From positions 1 to 51,702 of the forward strand of contig CAZLNV010000001.1 of NCBI GenBank assembly GCA_964561095.1: DNA of 51,702 bases. Reading direction: 5' to 3'. Shown in pieces: positions 4,309 to 51,702 of this stretch. This stretch comes from an uncultured Muribaculaceae bacterium (GTDB lineage Bacteria > Bacillota_I > Bacilli_A > RF39 > UBA660). The translations under genes and the position numbers were made by a program. Each line of letters opens with the position of its first letter. The stretch's first letter is position 1. The notes under the pieces were generated by a model. That model ran no database searches and had not been told where the DNA came from. It saw only the letters and a program-made list of their open reading frames with translations.

Positions 4309-4350
4309 CATATTTATAATTAATGGTATATAATTTTATTGGTGAATAAA

Positions 4351-4773
4351 ATGTCAAATGTTTATAAAATGTTAAGCGATTTTAAAAAGAACTATCCAAA
4401 AACTATAGCTTGGAGACTAGAAAAGCATTCAAGAGTTATTGATGATTATATTGATGCAGATGAAAAGGTAGTTTATGCTTTTTGTGGACAAAAGAATGAC
4501 TGCTGGTATGACATTACATCAAGTTGCGCAGTTGTGCTTACTAATAAAAGACTATTAATAGGTCAGCAATTATTTTTTGGGAGGAAGTTATATACTCAAG
4601 TTACTCCAGACATGTATAATGATTTAAAAGTTTATCACGGAATATTGTATGGAAAAATCACAATAGATACTATAAAAGAAGTAATAATATTAACTAATCT
4701 AGATAATAGATCTTTAGATGAAATAGAAACGAACATATCCAGTTTTATGTTAGAAGCTAAAAAGCAAAAATAA
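4351..4773 (+). CDS. Bacterial PH-domain (YokE-like) protein
   Basis: Pattern EKVVYAFCGQ...AVVLTNKRLLIGQQ...KITIDTIKEV, typical of bacterial pleckstrin-homology-like domains. The ATG is preceded by a GGTGA RBS. Confidence 0.45.
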   Translation: MSNVYKMLSDFKKNYPKTIAWRLEKHSRVIDDYIDADEKVVYAFCGQKNDCWYDITSSCAVVLTNKRLLIGQQLFFGRKLYTQVTPDMYNDLKVYHGILYGKITIDTIKEVIILTNLDNRSLDEIETNISSFMLEAKKQK

Positions 4774-14405: not shown

Positions 14406-15500
14406 ATGTCTAAAAAGGATAAGTATTTAAATGATCTTAATAATACTTTGGATAATTATAAATACAAAAAAGACATTGTAGATAAATATGACTCCTTAAT
14501 AGAAAAAAAATTATCTGAAGGGCAAAAGATTACTGAAATAATTAAAGAGTTAGGTAGTGCAAAAGACATTCGCAATAAAGAAGTCACTACTTACAGGGTT
14601 ACAGAAAAAATTAAAAATATAAAAAATAAAATAAAAGATAAAAGTAAAAAAGTACTAACTTCTACTAAGAAATTTTTAAGAAACAGAAGTAAAAAAATAG
14701 AATTTAAAAATAAATTAAATAAGTTTAAAAATAAATTTAAATTTAAAAAGAATAAGAAAAAACCAGTTAAAAAGAATAGAGATAATATTCTTAATAAAAC
14801 TAAAAAAGTGGTATTAGCAAAAAAGGTAAAGTCTAAATATAGCTTATTAATTTTTATTGTTCAAGTATTACTATTTATACTTTTATTTTATGTTTTAGTA
14901 ATTTTTATGGCTTCTTTATTTGCTATTCTAGATGGTATAAAATTTTACGGTTTATCTATATTTTTATTCGGGTTATCTTTATTTATATATTTAATATTAA
15001 GTTATTTGGATAGGAAAAAATATTGTATAGATGTTAATTCTAGATTTTATTTTATATCATTTGTATTAACTTTATTAATATTAGCTTTAGGAGTTGGATA
15101 TACAACTTATAATTATTTTGATGTAGATTATGTATCCGATTTGAGTGAAAAATATTCTTTTGTGACCCAAATATTAGAATATAGGGTTTCTAATGAAAAA
15201 GATTTGCATATTTATTTTAATAGTTGGTATAAAAATTATTATTTAATACAAATAGATGATAGATTAGATGATAAAGTAAAAGTAGAAATAAAGTATTATG
15301 AGGCATTTTATGATTTACATCATAAAATTGAAAATGGAAATATGTATATATCTCTTTCTTGTGATTCAAAAGATATAGTAAGTCTATATCTAAATAATTT
15401 AAAAGAAAATAAAATTTATAATGAAAAAGAGCTTAGCAGATATTTAATAAGAATTTATGTTAGTGAAAAGAATGCAAAAAAACTAATTATTCATAATTAG
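14406..15500 (+). CDS. Membrane protein with an N-terminal DUF1700/HAAS-like helical domain, a Lys-rich linker, TM helices and an extracytoplasmic domain
   Basis: The N-terminus, KYLNDLNNTLDNY...IVDKYDSLIEKKLSEGQKITEIIKELGSAKDI, follows the DUF1700 pattern. It is followed by a roughly 80-aa K/N-rich low-complexity region and then 4 TM segments. Confidence 0.5.
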   Translation: MSKKDKYLNDLNNTLDNYKYKKDIVDKYDSLIEKKLSEGQKITEIIKELGSAKDIRNKEVTTYRVTEKIKNIKNKIKDKSKKVLTSTKKFLRNRSKKIEFKNKLNKFKNKFKFKKNKKKPVKKNRDNILNKTKKVVLAKKVKSKYSLLIFIVQVLLFILLFYVLVIFMASLFAILDGIKFYGLSIFLFGLSLFIYLILSYLDRKKYCIDVNSRFYFISFVLTLLILALGVGYTTYNYFDVDYVSDLSEKYSFVTQILEYRVSNEKDLHIYFNSWYKNYYLIQIDDRLDDKVKVEIKYYEAFYDLHHKIENGNMYISLSCDSKDIVSLYLNNLKENKIYNEKELSRYLIRIYVSEKNAKKLIIHN

Positions 15501-45233: not shown

Positions 45234-46007
45234 ATGGAAGATATAGTAAAATTGATAACAAAATTTTTATCAAGATATAAAGCCGATGAAATAGAAGGCG
45301 TTTTATTGTATGGCAGTGCTGTGAGTGGCAGATTAAATAAAAAATCTGACATTGATATAATAGTGGCCGTAAATACTGACTCTTATACAGAAAAAGTTGG
45401 GTGTTCAAAGATTGATGGAGTAAAAATAGAATATTTTGTACATAATATTGATAATTTGTATGAACTAGCTTTGAAACAAATTGAATTAAATGATCCATCA
45501 AGATTAACTAAATATATTACATCCAAGATTATATATGATAAGAGTGGAAAATTTAAAACAGAGATTGATAAAATAAAAAAATTATATGATTTACCTATTA
45601 GAAAAAAGCATGATAATTATATAAAAAAGTCTATTTTTCACATTAAGAATAGAATTGATGATTTATATTCTTTAATAGAAGCTGATAGTTTCTATATTGT
45701 TTATTTTGATATTTTAAATAAAATACGAGAATTAGATACTTTAATCAATGGATACATAATAATACCATTATCAAAATCTGAAAAATTATTTAAAGATAGT
45801 AACTATATGTCCAAATATATAGATAGTGATGTTCATAAAACATCAGATGATGTTTTTATTAAAAAGTATTTAGAATGTTTGAAAATAAAAGATAGATTTA
45901 AAATGATTAAAGATTTAGAAGATTTATATGAATACGTTTTTAGAAATGAAAAATTTAATTCCGATGAATTTGAATTGGTTTTTGAGAAAGGTAGTATAGG
46001 TGTATGA
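45234..46007 (+). CDS. Pol-beta-superfamily nucleotidyltransferase-domain protein with a helical C-terminal domain (KNTase-like architecture)
   Basis: The motif LLYGSAVSGRLNKKSDIDIIV matches the GS-x9-11-(D/E)x(D/E) minimal NTase signature. The substrate is not inferable from the sequence. Confidence 0.6.
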   Translation: MEDIVKLITKFLSRYKADEIEGVLLYGSAVSGRLNKKSDIDIIVAVNTDSYTEKVGCSKIDGVKIEYFVHNIDNLYELALKQIELNDPSRLTKYITSKIIYDKSGKFKTEIDKIKKLYDLPIRKKHDNYIKKSIFHIKNRIDDLYSLIEADSFYIVYFDILNKIRELDTLINGYIIIPLSKSEKLFKDSNYMSKYIDSDVHKTSDDVFIKKYLECLKIKDRFKMIKDLEDLYEYVFRNEKFNSDEFELVFEKGSIGV

Positions 46008-46393
46008 AAAAAATCTATTTTGGCTATGATTTAACTTATTTAGTAATATTTATTATAGAATTTGTTTATTATTTAAGGTTTAATTCAACATTATTTGGGC
46101 TAATCTACATAGTATTGAATTTATTGGTTTTGTCTCTACTAATGCTAAGTTTAATTAATTATAAAAATGATAATGTTAAAATAAGGATAAGTAAAAATAT
46201 CTTTTTAATTGTTATTATTTTCTTTTTATCATTCATACTTCCTAAATTAAATTTTATAGATGAAAGTAAAATATTTATAGATAGCATAAAATCATTTATA
46301 GGTATAATAGATCCTTTATTAATACTAGTTTTAGCTATTGTTAGTTTTTTAGATTTTAAGTTTAATAATAAGAGAAATTATAAAATCAATTAA
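46004..46393 (+). CDS. Small polytopic membrane protein
   Basis: Its ATG overlaps the NTase stop (GTATGA). It has four hydrophobic helices. Its 3' end overlaps the convergent gene by 45 nt. Confidence 0.45.
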   Translation: MKKIYFGYDLTYLVIFIIEFVYYLRFNSTLFGLIYIVLNLLVLSLLMLSLINYKNDNVKIRISKNIFLIVIIFFLSFILPKLNFIDESKIFIDSIKSFIGIIDPLLILVLAIVSFLDFKFNNKRNYKIN

Positions 46394-46897
46394 CATAACC
46401 ACTCCAAGAATAGCAATTATTATTTTTGGAGTTTTTGCATATAATTTATCTGTTAAAGGTTTTATAAAATAATATAGTAAAATAACAGTCATACTCCAAA
46501 AAAATGATGTAGGTATACTTATGTATTTGCCAATATTTAATGGATAATTTGTATAATTCCAATAAACCAGATTAAAAAGTTTTTCTAATAAGATACCAGT
46601 AATCCATTCAATTGTAGTAATTATTATGAAAGATAATATAAAAAACATTAATACTTTTCTTATATTTGAACCAATTTTAATTCTTTCAAATATAAAAAAC
46701 ATTAAGGTAATGCATAATCCATATAAAAAAGTGTATGGTCCATACATGATACCGCTGTCGTAATTAAATGAAAAAATTATTTTGAGTATGGTTTCATATA
46801 TAAAACCAAATATTGAGTAAAAAATTAGATTAAATAAACATGTCATAAATATAGCATTTACTAAAATGTTATCAAATATTCTATTAATATTTGACAA
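46349..46897 (-). CDS. Putative ABC-transporter type IV (CmpB/PF06541-like) membrane protein
   Basis: FGFIYETILK...GIMYGPYTFLYGL follows the pattern I recall for this family. It has about 5 TM helices. Confidence 0.5.
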   Translation of the reverse strand: MSNINRIFDNILVNAIFMTCLFNLIFYSIFGFIYETILKIIFSFNYDSGIMYGPYTFLYGLCITLMFFIFERIKIGSNIRKVLMFFILSFIIITTIEWITGILLEKLFNLVYWNYTNYPLNIGKYISIPTSFFWSMTVILLYYFIKPLTDKLYAKTPKIIIAILGVVMLIDFIISLIIKLKI

Positions 46898-46950
46898 TAA
46901 AATACAAAAGTGGTATAATACAAAGCATATTTATTAAGGGGGTATGAAAT

Positions 46951-48213
46951 ATGACAAAAAAGGATTTGTTATTACAAATAAGAACAATAGATATGAGAAT
47001 CAGAAACATAAAGAGTTCATTAAATGAACTGTATGCAAAATTTGATAAATTAAGTGAGGATGAGCTAAAACTAGAATCAAAACTTTTAATGGAAGTTGCA
47101 AGCTTAAGAAAAATTAGAAGAGAGTATGTTTCTATGGAACCAAGTTTAGAAAATGAACTTTTACCATCATCTGCTAAAAAAGCGGAGTTAAAAGTATCTA
47201 ATAAAGAAAAAGACAAAAACGCAAAAGATAAGGATGCTTTTAGCGGTAAGAATTTGTTTATTGGTTCTGTTGCATTATTAACAGTAATGGCTATAGCGGC
47301 TTTATGCGCAAAGAACTGTAAAAAAGGAAAAGAAACAGCAAATTTAAATACACCAGCAGCAATTGAGATAACCGTTCCTTATTCTCCTACGTTTACTTCC
47401 GAGGCTATGCCTACGGTTACACCAGAAATAAAAGCAATGTTTAGTGATGTGACAAGTGAAGAAGAATTAATTGAGAGAGCAAAATTAATTTATGATATTG
47501 ATTTAAAACCAATATTAGATGAATTAGGTAATGAACAATTAAATAATTATATAACAGAAGAAAGATTAATTGATATGTTGAGATTGGAACTAGGAGAATT
47601 ACCATTGCATTCAGAATATGATGATAATTCAATTGATGAGATGTATCAATTTAGAACAGAAGTATTTGGTAACTTAGGCTCAGATCCTAATTTAACTAAA
47701 TTATATCCAGCACATTATGCTTTACAAGCTCCTGATAATAGCGAATTAAGCGAGTATATGGCATCGTATGATGAGCTATATAATAATATTGCCGAAGCTA
47801 GAAATAATGGTGATATGGAAAGTGCTATAAAGAATATTGAGGCATTAGGTAAAAAGCATTATAACGAATTTGTTTTAGCGGGCTTATATGGAGATTTTAA
47901 CCCATATTTATTAGATAGCGAATATAGGCAGTTAGCTTTTGCAGCTGCTGATGAAAGATATGCTTCATATGTATTAGAATATATATTAGATAATAATTTA
48001 ACTATATGTGTACCAGCATGTTATGATCCAGTTACTGGAGAATTTAAAGATATAAATGTAGTTGATATAGAAGAAGCACTTGTACTTGGAACTAGTATGA
48101 ATGGAAAAGTTTCATTATCGTATTATGGAAATGCACAAGATGTAAATTTGCCAAGAGAATTTTATTACAATTTAGCAAAAAAATTAGATGGTAAAGTATT
48201 AAAGAGGGGGTAA
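46951..48213 (+). CDS. Hypothetical bitopic protein with an N-terminal cytoplasmic coiled coil, one TM and a roughly 290-aa extracytoplasmic domain
   Basis: GGGGG RBS. Heptad-like N-terminus (residues 1-70), a K-rich linker, and the TM LFIGSVALLTVMAIAALCA. I did not recognise a family. Confidence 0.6.
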   Translation: MTKKDLLLQIRTIDMRIRNIKSSLNELYAKFDKLSEDELKLESKLLMEVASLRKIRREYVSMEPSLENELLPSSAKKAELKVSNKEKDKNAKDKDAFSGKNLFIGSVALLTVMAIAALCAKNCKKGKETANLNTPAAIEITVPYSPTFTSEAMPTVTPEIKAMFSDVTSEEELIERAKLIYDIDLKPILDELGNEQLNNYITEERLIDMLRLELGELPLHSEYDDNSIDEMYQFRTEVFGNLGSDPNLTKLYPAHYALQAPDNSELSEYMASYDELYNNIAEARNNGDMESAIKNIEALGKKHYNEFVLAGLYGDFNPYLLDSEYRQLAFAAADERYASYVLEYILDNNLTICVPACYDPVTGEFKDINVVDIEEALVLGTSMNGKVSLSYYGNAQDVNLPREFYYNLAKKLDGKVLKRG

Positions 48214-48219
48214 ATAGTT

Positions 48220-49533
48220 ATGTATAGTAATGATAGAGGTTTTGGCCTTAAAGATTTAATTATTAAGATTATATTCTTAGCATTGTTTGTTTTATTAATG
48301 GTATGGTTATTCCGTACATACACTCCGAATATGAAACCGTTTTATAGTAATGTGTTTAGAGAAAACATTTCATATATGCAAGATTCAGCTAAAAATTATT
48401 TTACAACTGACAAATTACCTGCTGAAATAGGTCAAAGTACTAAATTGACATTAAAAGAAATGCAGGAGAAAAAGTTGTTATTAGCTTTTGTTGATAAAGA
48501 TGGAAATTCTTGTAATATGTATGAATCTTACGCTGAAGTTACAAAAGAAGAAAATGGTTATATATTAAAGACAAATCTAGAATGCAATACTGAAAAAGAT
48601 TATGTTATAGAAATATTGGGGTGCTATGATTATGGATGCGACAAAGGTTGCAATCTAAAAGAAACCGCTTTAGAATATCAATTTACTAAAAGATTTTCTA
48701 AAACAGTAACAAATCTTACATGTCCTAAAGGATATAAAAGAGATGGAAACTATTGCTATAAGACAGTTGGAAACGAAACGGTAGGAGCAACTAAGAATTA
48801 TACAGATGCTTATGTAATAGCAACGGGAGTTTTATATACAGTTGGTGCTAATCAAGAAATTGAATTAAAAGCAAATTGTACAACTACAACAACTCAAACT
48901 AAAGTATATAAAGACGCAATTGCTACTACAGTCACTAATGGAACATGTAAAGATATTCAAATTAAAGATCCGAATTGTACTGTTCAATGCAAAATGGTTT
49001 GGGATAGTAATTCTAAAACATATGTTAAGAAATGTAATACTTGTGGTTATATAACTACAAAAGATTGTTCAGAAGTAACAACTACAACAAATTATTCTTG
49101 CCCTGAAGGATATAACGATGGTTATGTTGGAGAAGGAGCAAATAAAAAATGCTATAAGTTAGTAAGCACTAAGACAACTAATTGTACTTGCCCGGTAGGA
49201 ACAGATAAAGAAACCGGAAGTGGCGAAAACAAGAAATGTTATGATATAGTGTCCGGTGCTAAGACTCCATATTGTGAAAATAAGGATGCTAAGTATGATA
49301 GTAAAACTAATAAGTGTTTGTTAACTGTGGGGGGTAATTTTTCACACTATAGTTGCCCTTCCAATAAGTACTCTTTAGATAAAGAAAAGGGAACATGTAC
49401 TTTGTCAATAGTTGATAAGATTAAAGCAACTAAGAATGTAAGTACAAAGACTTGGACTCAAACTAAATGGAGTAGAAGTAAAACATTAAAAGGATGGACA
49501 GCTACAGGCAAAACAAGAATAGTCGAACTATAA
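48220..49533 (+). CDS. Cys-rich extracytoplasmic repeat protein with a pilin-like N-terminus
   Basis: 6-nt gap from the upstream gene and a GGGGG RBS. The N-terminus RGFGLKDLIIKIIFLALFVLLMVWLF resembles a class III (prepilin) signal. There are 23 Cys after the TM and five repeats of type (S/T)CPxG..x(8-14)..KC(Y)x(L/I/T)V. Confidence 0.6.
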   Translation: MYSNDRGFGLKDLIIKIIFLALFVLLMVWLFRTYTPNMKPFYSNVFRENISYMQDSAKNYFTTDKLPAEIGQSTKLTLKEMQEKKLLLAFVDKDGNSCNMYESYAEVTKEENGYILKTNLECNTEKDYVIEILGCYDYGCDKGCNLKETALEYQFTKRFSKTVTNLTCPKGYKRDGNYCYKTVGNETVGATKNYTDAYVIATGVLYTVGANQEIELKANCTTTTTQTKVYKDAIATTVTNGTCKDIQIKDPNCTVQCKMVWDSNSKTYVKKCNTCGYITTKDCSEVTTTTNYSCPEGYNDGYVGEGANKKCYKLVSTKTTNCTCPVGTDKETGSGENKKCYDIVSGAKTPYCENKDAKYDSKTNKCLLTVGGNFSHYSCPSNKYSLDKEKGTCTLSIVDKIKATKNVSTKTWTQTKWSRSKTLKGWTATGKTRIVEL

Positions 49534-49538
49534 ATATA

Positions 49539-49569
49539 AAGATGAAATTGAAGAAATTTCATCTTTTTT
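49539..49569 (+). terminator. Rho-independent terminator after the Cys-rich protein gene
   Basis: aagatgaaatt-gaaga-aatttcatctt, an 11-bp stem followed by a T run. Confidence 0.75.
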
Positions 49570-49618
49570 GTTGAATTTTTTTCATTTATCATCTATTATA
49601 AATATAGAGGTGAAAAAA

Positions 49619-50071
49619 ATGAAAAAATTTTGGAAAAAGTATAAGGTATTAGTTATAGTTGCTTTATTAGTGGTAGCTTTTGTGGCATTATCGTTTTTAG
49701 TAGAAGGAAATAAACCTGCAGCAAAAGAACCTAGTTCAAGTGTTAGTGAATGGGTAGAAGCTGTTAAAGAAGATAAAAATGTTATTACAGTAATTGCGCT
49801 ATCATATTGTAGCCATTGTAAAGATTATAAACCTGTAATTACTGAAATAGCTACTAAATATTCTATACCGCTTTATTGGTTCGAAATAGACACAGTGTCT
49901 GAAGCAGATGCAAATACAATTAGTTCAACATATGCTTTTAGTGAGTACGAAGGTGCTTCTCCATACACAGCAATTACTAAAAAAGGTGCAGTAATAGCTC
50001 AGTATGCAAATGGTTATATGTCTAATGAACAAGCATTAAGCTTTTTGAAAGATAATGGAGTAATTAAATAA
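49619..50071 (+). CDS. Membrane-anchored thioredoxin-fold thiol-disulfide oxidoreductase (CxxC = CSHC)
   Basis: Signal-anchor KVLVIVALLVVAFVALSFLV, then a thioredoxin-like VIALSYCSHCKDYKP motif. The start is moved to the ATG behind an AGAGGTGA RBS. Confidence 0.72.
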   Translation: MKKFWKKYKVLVIVALLVVAFVALSFLVEGNKPAAKEPSSSVSEWVEAVKEDKNVITVIALSYCSHCKDYKPVITEIATKYSIPLYWFEIDTVSEADANTISSTYAFSEYEGASPYTAITKKGAVIAQYANGYMSNEQALSFLKDNGVIK

Positions 50072-50100
50072 AAAACTTTAAAAACTTTAAAGTTTTTTTT
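50072..50100 (+). terminator. Rho-independent terminator of the thioredoxin-like gene
   Basis: aaaactttaaa / tttaaagtttt hairpin followed by a T8 run. Confidence 0.6.
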
Positions 50101-50123
50101 ATAATATATATATGGTGGTTAAT

Positions 50124-51215
50124 ATGAAAAAATATATTGGTATTTTATTTTTATCATTAATAGTAGTAATGTTTATTAAATATTTTAATGCTGAGTACAA
50201 AATTAAGTATAATCTTGATGATCATAGTATAATAGCTAAATATGAAAATGGAAGGTATTATGTAGAAATAGATGGTAAATATAATTTTGATATTTATAAA
50301 TCAAGAGGCTTAAAAAAATTAAAAATAAAACAAATAAAAGTTATAGATGATAATGAGTTATATTGTATTATTCCAATAATTGATGGAATTAATACTTACC
50401 CGCTATGCTACTTGAATGAAGAATATATTGATTATAATTTAGTGGACAATGAAGAAATTAATGAATATAAAAATACATACACGGATCACTTAAAAGGTAA
50501 TTTTTCTTTTAATAATAATTTGAATAAAAAAGAATACATTCTTTTATGGAATTACAAAGGATTTTATAGAATGAATGGTGAAGATATAAATACAATTAAT
50601 TTATTTAAAGAAGGCAAGTATGACAATAATTTAATGTGTCAGATAAATAATGAACTTTTATTTCCAGATTATAAAGAAGAATATAATTTTAAAGTTTTCT
50701 ATTTATTGGATATTGGAAATGGCAATAAGAAAACAATAGAAAGTAAGTATGAATTTAGTTATGACGGATACATAGTAGGGAATATTAATAATAAGATATA
50801 TTTTTATGATAATAAAAATTCTAAGTTATATGAAATTAATATTAAAAAATCAGAAATAAAACTAATTGGTTCAGAAGAATTAGGATATATAAAATATATT
50901 AATAAAAAACAAGTTGTGGCTAAAAAAAGTGAATATAAAAATCAAGAAATTAATTATATTAATGAAAAATCAAATTATAAATACTCAGTAGAAAATAATA
51001 ATTTATATAAAGTTATAAACGATAATGAGAATATCAAGATTAAAATATTTAATGGTGAAAAAATTAAGGTAATAAAAGAAAACAATAATGATTTATATTT
51101 TATTTCAAATGATATTATGTATAAATACAATCCATCTATTGGATATATTAAAATATTTAATTATTTTGAACTTAATTTTAATACAAATAATATTATTTAT
51201 ATATATAATAAATAA
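50124..51215 (+). CDS. Hypothetical N-terminally anchored protein with an N/K/Y-rich, beta-strand-like ectodomain
   Basis: Signal-anchor IGILFLSLIVVMFIKYF and a long uninterrupted ORF. I did not recognise a family. Confidence 0.55.
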   Translation: MKKYIGILFLSLIVVMFIKYFNAEYKIKYNLDDHSIIAKYENGRYYVEIDGKYNFDIYKSRGLKKLKIKQIKVIDDNELYCIIPIIDGINTYPLCYLNEEYIDYNLVDNEEINEYKNTYTDHLKGNFSFNNNLNKKEYILLWNYKGFYRMNGEDINTINLFKEGKYDNNLMCQINNELLFPDYKEEYNFKVFYLLDIGNGNKKTIESKYEFSYDGYIVGNINNKIYFYDNKNSKLYEINIKKSEIKLIGSEELGYIKYINKKQVVAKKSEYKNQEINYINEKSNYKYSVENNNLYKVINDNENIKIKIFNGEKIKVIKENNNDLYFISNDIMYKYNPSIGYIKIFNYFELNFNTNNIIYIYNK

Positions 51216-51256
51216 CAAAATTATACTTTTATCATAGAATATTTTAGGTGATGAAA

Positions 51257-51595
51257 ATGATAAATAATTCTAGTGATAAAAGTTTGGATACTCCTTTTTA
51301 TAGTTATTATGCAATTAAAAGTGGCGATACTCTTTACAAAATTGCCAAAGAGTTTGATATGAATCCTAAGTTAATAGCTGAGCTTAATGGTTTAAAGTTA
51401 GAGGATTATATTTACCCTAATGAAACTTTAAAGATACCTAAAAAGGGAGTTCAATATTACATAACAAAAGAAACAGATACTTTAAAAGAGGTAAGTAAAA
51501 TATTTGGGAAGCCTATTAATGAATTAGTAAGCCAAAATGAAACAATATATTTATTACCCGAACAGATGATATTTTATAAAGAGGGTGGCATATAA
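51257..51595 (+). CDS. Small protein with two LysM domains
   Basis: YYAIKSGDTLYKIAKEFDMNPKLIAELNGL......NETLKIP and YYITKETDTLKEVSKIFGKPINELVSQN. The start sits behind an AGGTGA RBS. Confidence 0.8.
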   Translation: MINNSSDKSLDTPFYSYYAIKSGDTLYKIAKEFDMNPKLIAELNGLKLEDYIYPNETLKIPKKGVQYYITKETDTLKEVSKIFGKPINELVSQNETIYLLPEQMIFYKEGGI

Positions 51596-51596
51596 A

Positions 51597-51619
51597 AGCA
51601 ACTAAATAGTTGTTTTTTT
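51597..51619 (+). terminator. Terminator of the LysM gene
   Basis: gcaacta-aa-tagttgt (one G-U pair) followed by a T7 run. Confidence 0.5.
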
Positions 51620-51638
51620 ACTATGACTTTGATATAAT
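51610..51638 (+). promoter_or_regulatory. Promoter for tRNA-Cys
   Basis: TTGTTT, a 17-nt spacer, then TATAAT with an extended -10 TG (TGaTATAAT). It ends 11 nt before the tRNA 5' end. Confidence 0.5.
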
Positions 51639-51649
51639 ACAACATGAAT

Positions 51650-51702
51650 GGACCTATAGCCAAGTGGTAAGGCGTGGGACTGCAACTCCCTGATCGTTGG
51701 TT
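51650..51702 (+). tRNA. tRNA-Cys (anticodon GCA), 5' portion; the window ends inside the T-arm
   Basis: GGACCTA acceptor half, D-arm GCC-AAGTGGTAA-GGC, anticodon stem (T)GGGA/TCCC(T) with loop CTGCAAC, then GTTGGTT starting the T-arm. Confidence 0.8.

Follow-up and report, generated by a model that had tools for sequence, protein, structure and literature searches.

Does a membrane-tethered thioredoxin encoded directly after a cysteine-rich envelope protein exist to serve that protein, and do the genes around the two form one functional block? We asked this of five genes, here called A to E, at positions 46,951 to 51,595 of a 51,702-nucleotide stretch of DNA (the window) from an uncultured gut bacterium of the GTDB lineage Bacilli_A; RF39; UBA660 (GenBank assembly GCA_964561095.1, contig CAZLNV010000001.1). 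The window has a G+C content of ~25%, and its assembly is 839 kb long and 94% complete. A preliminary description had read the five genes as one multi-gene block in which C, an exported thiol-disulfide oxidoreductase, and B, a protein with 23 Cys, make a substrate-enzyme pair. On balance, we favor a different answer: the run is a juxtaposition, specific to one sub-lineage, of two envelope modules that are otherwise conserved separately, A-B on the one side and C, D, and E with an upstream gene, U, on the other.

The anatomy of the run was largely as first described. All five open reading frames (ORFs) were found consecutively on the + strand, and A, B, and D matched no Pfam, NCBIfam, or PDB family, in agreement with the statement that three of the five products belong to no recognized family. 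The statement that all five are anchored or wall-binding held for A to D, each of which has an anchor or transmembrane (TM) segment; E has neither a signal peptide nor a TM segment and would be wall-binding at most.

To compare gene order, we used 73 genomic loci coding for a B relative, all from genomes named uncultured "Bacilli", "Mollicutes", "Tenericutes", or "Clostridium sp. CAG:1000/524/628", together with a genus-balanced sample of 151 genomes of the order (0.6–1.6 Mb), and documented how the genes are built and conserved, how often they are neighbors, which families they match, and which promoter motifs precede them. The order B-C-D-E recurred in 36 of the 73 loci, usually with U and A before it and a further gene, F, after it; the flanks differed, and B in these loci was only 33–58% identical to the B of the window. 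Across the order, the picture was one of two units. C and D lay within 1.5 kb of each other in 43 of 57 genomes, whereas B and C lay within 3 kb in only 2 of 88 (the genome of the window and one of another genus), and B and D within 3 kb in 2 of 79. The five genes are therefore not co-conserved at the order level, and the block of the preliminary description resolves into two modules, with A-B elsewhere when C remains with U, D, E, and F.

Genomes in which the cluster is split show the same division directly. In these, U-(CmpB)-C-D-E-F occupies one site, and a gene for a protein of ~276 aa followed by A-B occupies another (for example, loci L083 and L095 of genome G098); U stays with C-D in such cases (L082, L083). 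In the wider set of loci, the commonest core was C, a gene for a bPH_3 protein, and D. The genome of the window itself retains the ~276-aa gene that normally precedes A-B, on another contig (C15:6561-7391) and without A-B beside it. The split genomes and this orphan gene suggest that, in this sub-lineage, A-B was relocated to the gap that lies upstream of C.

Presence of the genes pointed the same way as their order. B was found in 141 of the 151 genomes, a C-type thioredoxin in 105, D in 87, and the sporulation protein SpoIVA in 130, and no pair among B, C, and D was significantly associated in presence or absence in the order sample (C-type thioredoxins were scored at E ≤ 1e-10; the outcome of such tests varies with this cut-off, and phylogeny was ignored). 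At the same cut-off, 44 genomes code for B without a C-type thioredoxin.

The genes are also separated by transcription signals, which we followed by aligning the upstream regions of ~40 related loci. A-B is preceded at 46891..46919 (+) by TTGACA, 17 nt, and TATAAT with a TG upstream, which agrees with the consensus at 12 of 12 positions in our scan; TTGACA-17-TGnTATAAT, with a conserved leader, was present upstream of A in nearly all related loci. A terminator-like hairpin with a U-run follows B at 49538..49571 (+; hairpin 49538-49566, 12 bp, −11.5 kcal/mol, z −4.5), and straight after it comes a promoter-like element for C (49571..49599, +; TTGAAT, 17 nt, TATTAT; 9 of 12 positions by scan), whose counterpart in related loci is the weaker TTGTAA-17-TAAACT at a conserved position. 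A second hairpin with a U-run follows C at 50070..50105 (+; hairpin 50070-50098, 13 bp, −7.8 kcal/mol, z −2.6). Its pairs are all A-U but one G-C, and the element overlaps the TATAAT of the D promoter (50100-50105), an arrangement of terminator then TATAAT that is conserved between C and D. Both hairpins are A-U rich, weak in energy, and were missed by a consensus scan; a hairpin plus T-run was nevertheless found at both positions in the ~40 related loci, so that the two terminators first placed at 49539-49569 and 50072-100 are real and conserved in position. After E, the window has a weak hairpin with a T-run (51596..51623, +; −5.6 kcal/mol, z −2.0), and in related loci, E is separated from F by a clear terminator. 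The earlier estimate of at least three transcription units was, if anything, low: A-B, C, D, and E each have a conserved promoter-like element of their own, and the cluster comprises more than three units (five by our count) with at least two classes of promoter.

What, then, would each module do? Gene A (46951..48213, +), delimited by its ORF and an alignment of relatives, codes for a 420-aa bitopic protein with a heptad-like, coiled-coil-like N-terminus that is predicted to be cytoplasmic, one hydrophobic segment at about residues 100-120, a Pro/Thr-rich linker, and an ectodomain. The C-terminal part spans ~300 residues, and the conserved ectodomain carries a CxPxC motif. No Pfam or NCBIfam model matched A, and a PDB profile search returned coiled-coil proteins only, weakly. 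Gene B follows after 6 nt, as first described; in relatives, the gap is 6–25 nt (median 20 nt), and the A-B pairing is near constant.

Gene B (48220..49533, +; ORF, alignments, and AlphaFold model) codes for a 437-aa signal-anchored protein with 23 Cys, ~20 of which are conserved in alignments. Its N-terminal 135 residues, which begin with a hydrophobic helix, are highly conserved. The AlphaFold model (predicted local distance difference test, pLDDT, 82.8) places a TM helix, a second helix, and a small sheet domain within the first 135 residues (helices at residues 10-33 and 39-60), followed by a long series of beta-hairpins, and the ~300 residues past residue 135 are thus modeled as a disulfide-rich beta-hairpin stalk. 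Searching the PDB with the whole model by Foldseek gave nothing below E = 0.1 and no pilin among the matches, and sequence searches gave no Pfam, NCBIfam, or PDB profile match. The protein collection holds at least 353 relatives of B; at the class level, B is restricted to one family except for a single weak match. B is the most Cys-rich ORF of the window and ranks second genome-wide among exported-looking ORFs, behind an ORF of 666 aa that has 35 Cys and a hydrophobic segment at its N-terminus and is unlinked to either exported thioredoxin of the genome (C20:8737-10737). Counting that ORF, further exported-looking ORFs of the genome have 35, 21, 17, and 14 Cys.

Since B is present in 19 of 21 genomes that lack SpoIVA, and since the A-B promoter is a textbook vegetative one, A-B would appear to be a core, vegetative module that is not specific to sporulation. 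We propose that A and B are co-produced from the consensus sigma-A promoter. A would span the membrane, its coiled coil facing the cytoplasm and a helical domain lying outside, and B, held by an uncleaved N-terminal anchor, would project a long, disulfide-stapled beta-hairpin stalk. The two may form a constitutive surface complex or fibril in bacteria that are forced to anchor surface proteins by TM segments.

Gene C (49619..50071, +) codes for a 150-aa, N-terminally anchored thioredoxin-fold protein (PF00085) with a CSHC motif and an invariant cis-Pro. Comparison with orthologues and a AGAGGTGA ribosome site place its start at ATG 49619 rather than at TTG 49568, which would give 167 aa. The PF00085 match scores 27.1–27.3 bits against a cut-off of 23.5, and 22 of 26 orthologues also match. 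C64, C67, and P115 are invariant in the 26 orthologues; overall, invariance is limited to the CxxC, one Gly, two Pro, and a few further positions. The N-terminus is positive and is followed by one TM segment. The earlier reading of C as an anchored thioredoxin fold with a CSHC site stands, and its extracytoplasmic location stands as a prediction. The dipeptide inside the CxxC is SH, PH, GH, DH, PA, QY, SY, HY, or PN among orthologues, and in most of them the third residue of the motif is His or Tyr. Such a residue there is typical of DsbA (CPHC) and PDI (CGHC) and not of thioredoxin, ResA, or StoA.

Matches to known families set C apart from each of its possible models. In the PDB, its profile found plain thioredoxins and 1zma, a bacteriocin accessory protein; DsbA chains aligned only at profile positions 55-84, the ~30 residues at the CxxC. 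Among the 26 members, TrbB matched 26 and PedC/BrcD 23, both weakly; DsbE matched 1, and Redoxin (PF08534) weakly matched 2. PedC/BrcD and TrbB, exported disulfide isomerases of bacteriocin maturation and pilin assembly, respectively, resemble C in small size, in being N-terminally anchored or exported, and in having a plain thioredoxin fold and a CxxC, and they are the best consistent NCBIfam matches; however, C scores only 24–28 bits against cut-offs of 120–132 (27.6 bits against 120 for PedC/BrcD, TIGR01295; 23.8 bits against 132 for TrbB, TIGR02738), no bacteriocin ATP-binding cassette transporter, conjugation, or transfer genes lie near C, and the steady neighbor of C is a beta-propeller-like membrane protein instead. 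With DsbA/BdbD, C shares the third-position His, with CPHC, the DsbA signature, in several orthologues, and an inferred role in oxidative folding of exported proteins. It differs in having no helical insertion domain, and profile searches of its genome found neither of the re-oxidants DsbB (PF02600) and VKOR (PF07884).

The preliminary description had compared C to StoA and ResA. In Bacillus subtilis, StoA (SpoIVH) and ResA are fed by CcdA and act as reductants of the TlpA/Redoxin type, with CPPC or CEPC as the motif. They resemble C in being membrane-anchored, extracytoplasmic thioredoxin folds, and the lineage of C has sporulation genes; C, however, is a plain PF00085 fold with CSHC, and CcdA/DsbD (PF02683) was absent from the 94%-complete genome in a search whose controls were positive. 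On fold type, motif, and the missing CcdA, we reject the StoA/ResA comparison; nor does C belong to a cytochrome c maturation clade, the unrelated assignment that had been kept in view. We consider C a probable exported thioredoxin of the oxidase or isomerase type, which would form or shuffle disulfides; its redox direction and topology are read from sequence features. A second exported thioredoxin with the same CSHC is encoded at C16:101-601 (−) of the same genome; it is of the lipoprotein type (signal ending in LTGC) and has no Cys-rich neighbor gene.

We can now return to the pairing of B and C. If C were the dedicated oxidoreductase of B and the five genes one functional block, which we regard as unlikely, one would expect C directly after B, as in the window and in 36 of the 73 loci, and the ~20 conserved extracytoplasmic Cys of B do need an oxidant, for which C, with its oxidase- or isomerase-like CxHC and no CcdA partner, is a fitting candidate. 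The comparative evidence does not follow: B and C are rarely adjacent in the order while C and D usually are, their presence is not associated, and their genes are separated by a conserved terminator and a distinct promoter. In loci L015 and L026, a B protein with 25 Cys is directly followed by D with no C between them, and B keeps its Cys there and in G051 (L091), where a C gene is likewise not adjacent or not detectable. The genome moreover codes for the second CSHC paralogue and for other Cys-rich exported proteins. Of the proposed substrate-enzyme pair, an exported, oxidase- or isomerase-like C and a plausible client in B remain, and no comparative test speaks for a dedicated partnership. 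B is a likely client of C because it is the most Cys-rich ORF of the window and the second among exported-looking ORFs of the genome; it is likely not a private one, and C is more likely a general helper, because the two modules adjoin only in this sub-lineage.

The most constant neighbor of C is D (50124..51215, +), a 363-aa, N-terminally anchored, all-beta protein characterized by alignment, AlphaFold, and Foldseek. Its alignment has a mean column identity of 62% and two invariant Cys, C81 and C95, so that D could itself be a client of C. The AlphaFold model (pLDDT 91.5; predicted template modeling score 0.87) is all-beta after the TM helix. Proteins with propellers dominated the top 50 Foldseek matches (E 1e-6 to 1e-4), although with template modeling scores of 0.2–0.33; they included prolyl oligopeptidase, oligopeptidase B, the LRP/LRP6/LDLR family, and IFT-A (best E ~1e-6, probability 1.0). 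Like the propellers of prolyl oligopeptidase, oligopeptidase B, and the YWTD domains of LDLR/LRP, D is all-beta and appears to be built of repeated four-stranded units; unlike them, it lacks both a catalytic domain and any Pfam propeller repeat, and it shares 7–12% identity with them. No Pfam family was found in 42 members of D, and NCBIfam and PDB sequence-profile searches gave no match either. On the model, we would call D propeller-like, no more.

Gene U (46004..46393, +) was located by tblastn upstream of the cluster in most related loci and codes for a 129-aa, four-helix membrane protein with no Pfam match. In the window (45234-46393), U overlaps the stop codon of a gene for a Pol-beta-type nucleotidyltransferase, an overlap shared by L006, L007, and L056; most other loci lack this neighbor, and there an extended −10 promoter serves U alone. 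Gene F of relatives codes for a 535-aa polytopic protein with a DUF4352-like domain. The orthologue of the bPH_3 (PF14470) protein, which in most genomes of the order is encoded between C and D, is here a 144-aa ORF 45 kb away, at 4339-4773 (+). Near the D-E-F module, two loci code for very large proteins (393, 472, and 1391 aa) with the canonical type IV pilin N-termini KGFTLVELL and KNGFTIAELL (L079:8561-13998, L024:675-2093). At the end of the window (51650-51702) is the start of a tRNA gene with the anticodon loop CTGCAAC, probably tRNA-Cys (GCA); it is cut by the window end, and ARAGORN did not report the incomplete gene. A phage or defense reading of the cluster was ruled out, as PHROGs and PADLOC searches matched nothing in it except LysM.

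Gene E (51257..51595, +; likely start ATG 51257) codes for a 112-aa LysM protein. It had been described as carrying two LysM domains: one is canonical (PF01476, residues 18-61, 61 bits against a cut-off of 20.9), and the second half is only a degenerate LysM-like region (15.5 bits against the LysM3 model). Upstream of E, at 51212..51241 (+), lies a promoter-like element of the sigma-K/sigma-E type, ATAAC, 16 nt, and CATAGAATA. ATA[AG]C-N16-CATAnnnTA was present in 42 of 42 loci with invariant spacing and variable spacer bases, and C1, A2, T3, A4, T8, and A9 of the −10 element were invariant in all of them (the window reads ATAACA-15/16-CATAGAATA); the ATAAC is preserved even inside the coding sequence of D. 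The same motif precedes spoVIF (SpoVIF, PF14069, 57.6 bits) in the genome of the window and in L060, L078, and L080, four lineages in all. In B. subtilis, spoVIF is reportedly sigma-K-dependent. The motif agrees, within 1 nt of spacing, with the Bacillus sigma-K consensus MWCM-16-CATANNNTD (PMC9562818); the −10 element of sigma-E is nearly the same (PMC9562818, PMC517825). Upstream of spoIVA, we found a CATAAGAT −10 and no ATAAC −35, and sigma-E and sigma-K are not separable there. The weight of the motif comes from its conservation across genomes and its presence at spoVIF rather than from genome counts. On this evidence, E is probably specific to sporulation and likely made late, in the sporulating mother cell.

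The host is a plausible setting for such a promoter. Sporulation has been predicted before in the uncultured orders RF39, RFN20, and ML615J-28 (PMC10868615), and the genome of the window codes for SpoIIGA, SigE, SigG, a SigK-like sigma factor, SpoIVA, and SpoVIF (C3:2663-3373; C9:5428-12355; C5, − strand, SpoVIF ORF). For endospore formers, genomes of this size (839 kb here, and 0.6–1.6 Mb in the order sample, in which 130 of 151 genomes have SpoIVA) would be unusually small. The ATPase domain of SpoIVA was split in 11 of the 151 genomes, in 10 of them near profile position 120-124 and in one (G120) at ~112. The cause is a 2.6-kb or 10-kb insertion (G038:C2:72632-73000 and 75621-75980; G149:C12:3849-4217 and 14407-14760) or a contig break, with contig-end splits in G012, G015, G027, G034, G047, G058, and G131; the fixed site suggests an intervening (skin-like) or mobile element. 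Small ORFs with 15–17 Cys and an N-terminal pattern that by eye is CotY/CotZ/ExsY-like occur in the genome of the window (C31:818-1243) and at L085:5434-5940, the latter two genes from D-E-C.

Is the whole block then a spore-envelope module serving cortex, coat, or engulfment, with C as a StoA-like protein and E as a coat-anchoring LysM protein of the SafA/SpoVID type? We think this improbable, even though several observations lean toward it. Besides the promoter that E shares with spoVIF and its missing signal peptide, four distant loci (L028, L047, L074, L075) have B, one gene, and then spoIIGA-sigE-sigG, spoVIF lies near D-E in L080 and L078, and the presence of D shows a weak association with that of SpoIVA (odds ratio 3.2, p = 0.018, uncorrected for phylogeny). 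Against it, A-B has a perfect sigma-A promoter, and genomes without SpoIVA keep not only B but also C (17 of 21) and, less often, D (7 of 21). C is not of the TlpA/ResA/StoA type, and whether E adjoins D does not track SpoIVA (1 of 7 versus 7 of 16, not significant). As for E, it shares with SafA/SpoVID-type proteins a LysM, the lack of a signal peptide, and a mother-cell-type promoter motif; it differs in its 112 aa of LysM repeats only, with no coat-assembly region, and scores 24.6 bits against a cut-off of 67.85 for the SafA/ExsA model TIGR02899.

A similarly small chance goes to a further alternative, that the neighbors are functionally unrelated and their common order reflects only descent in a slowly rearranging sub-clade. 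A promoter and terminator for every gene, the lack of presence/absence association among B, C, and D, and the dispersal of the genes in most genomes of the order are all what it would predict. It does not explain why C and D, often with a bPH_3 gene between them, pair across at least 40 genera-level lineages, why A-B pairing is nearly constant, or why all products are envelope proteins.

The last alternative, that B is a type IV pilin-like (pseudopilin) subunit, processed by a prepilin peptidase and polymerized, with C as a TrbB-like pilin-assembly isomerase, we consider highly improbable: B does have an N-terminal F-x-x-x-D (an acidic residue five after Phe), a hydrophobic helix, and then a helix and a small beta-sheet (alpha/beta) domain, a Peptidase_A24 (prepilin peptidase) is encoded in its own genome, and all 26 C orthologues weakly match TrbB, but position −1 of B is G, S, N, or R instead of a conserved Gly, position +5 is Asp instead of Glu, both are lost in distant B proteins, the helix contains a Lys and is followed by the 300-residue Cys-rich stalk, Foldseek with the whole B model gave no pilin match, true pilins of these genomes read KGFTLVELL, no pilus ATPase or platform genes lie near the cluster, and C scores 24 bits against the TrbB cut-off of 132; the pilin-like look of the B N-terminus is superficial.

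We return to the favored reading, the juxtaposition of two modules. The second module would comprise U, C, D, and E, to which relatives add F and the bPH_3 protein. In it, C would act as a membrane-tethered thioredoxin that catalyzes the formation or shuffling of disulfides outside the cytoplasm, probably for several exported Cys proteins, among them D, A, B, and others. E, which lacks an export signal and has a sigma-K-type promoter, would probably be produced in the sporulating mother cell.

Several points weigh against this reading. The joined order persists in 36 of 73 loci despite the low identity of B and differing flanks, and selection for proximity of A-B and C is possible. Genus-balanced sampling may undercount species-rich genera that have the joined order, and the presence/absence tests depend on E-value cut-offs (1e-10 for C) and ignore phylogeny. 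With a promoter and a terminator for each gene, synteny alone neither proves nor disproves a functional link. Some C orthologues (L003:8717-9493, L034:7842-8495, and 7 others) add an N-terminal Zn-ribbon or Lys-rich region and have a PLDc_N-like LPPVGxxLY hydrophobic segment; if this is a full TM helix, their thioredoxin domain would be cytoplasmic. An alternative reading of the E element is a weak sigma-A promoter (ATAACA, 17 nt, TATAAT), and a genome-wide scan found 3 strict copies of the E motif against ~2 expected by chance, which is no enrichment.

There is also a bolder version, which we consider doubtful, if somewhat less so than the alternatives above. In it, A-B would be the main surface structure of this genome-reduced gut order, a fibril of a new kind that is TM-anchored, built of disulfide-stapled beta-hairpins, and served by its own bitopic coiled-coil partner. 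C would catalyze disulfide chemistry outside the cytoplasm of an anaerobe on its own, with no need of DsbB, VKOR, or CcdA, and would be coupled to D as a new propeller protein, the bPH protein, and a sigma-K-controlled LysM protein; together, these would build or remodel the vegetative and the spore envelope in some of the smallest genomes with sporulation genes. All functions discussed here are inferred, as are membrane topology, the redox direction and clients, and when the genes are expressed, and no new mechanism is demonstrated.

The findings bear on the biology of an order that is known from metagenomes only and is common in animal and human guts. The C family represents an exported thioredoxin without a known redox partner in an anaerobe and so bears on how Gram-positive anaerobes form disulfides outside the cytoplasm. 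The sigma-K-type motif common to E and spoVIF is usable for charting the late mother-cell regulon in minimal predicted sporulators. In genomes of 0.6–1.6 Mb, any gene kept in >90% is likely important, and B is such a gene, with no recognizable relatives beyond its family. We regard it as a good candidate for the principal protein of the cell surface or of host contact in these bacteria.

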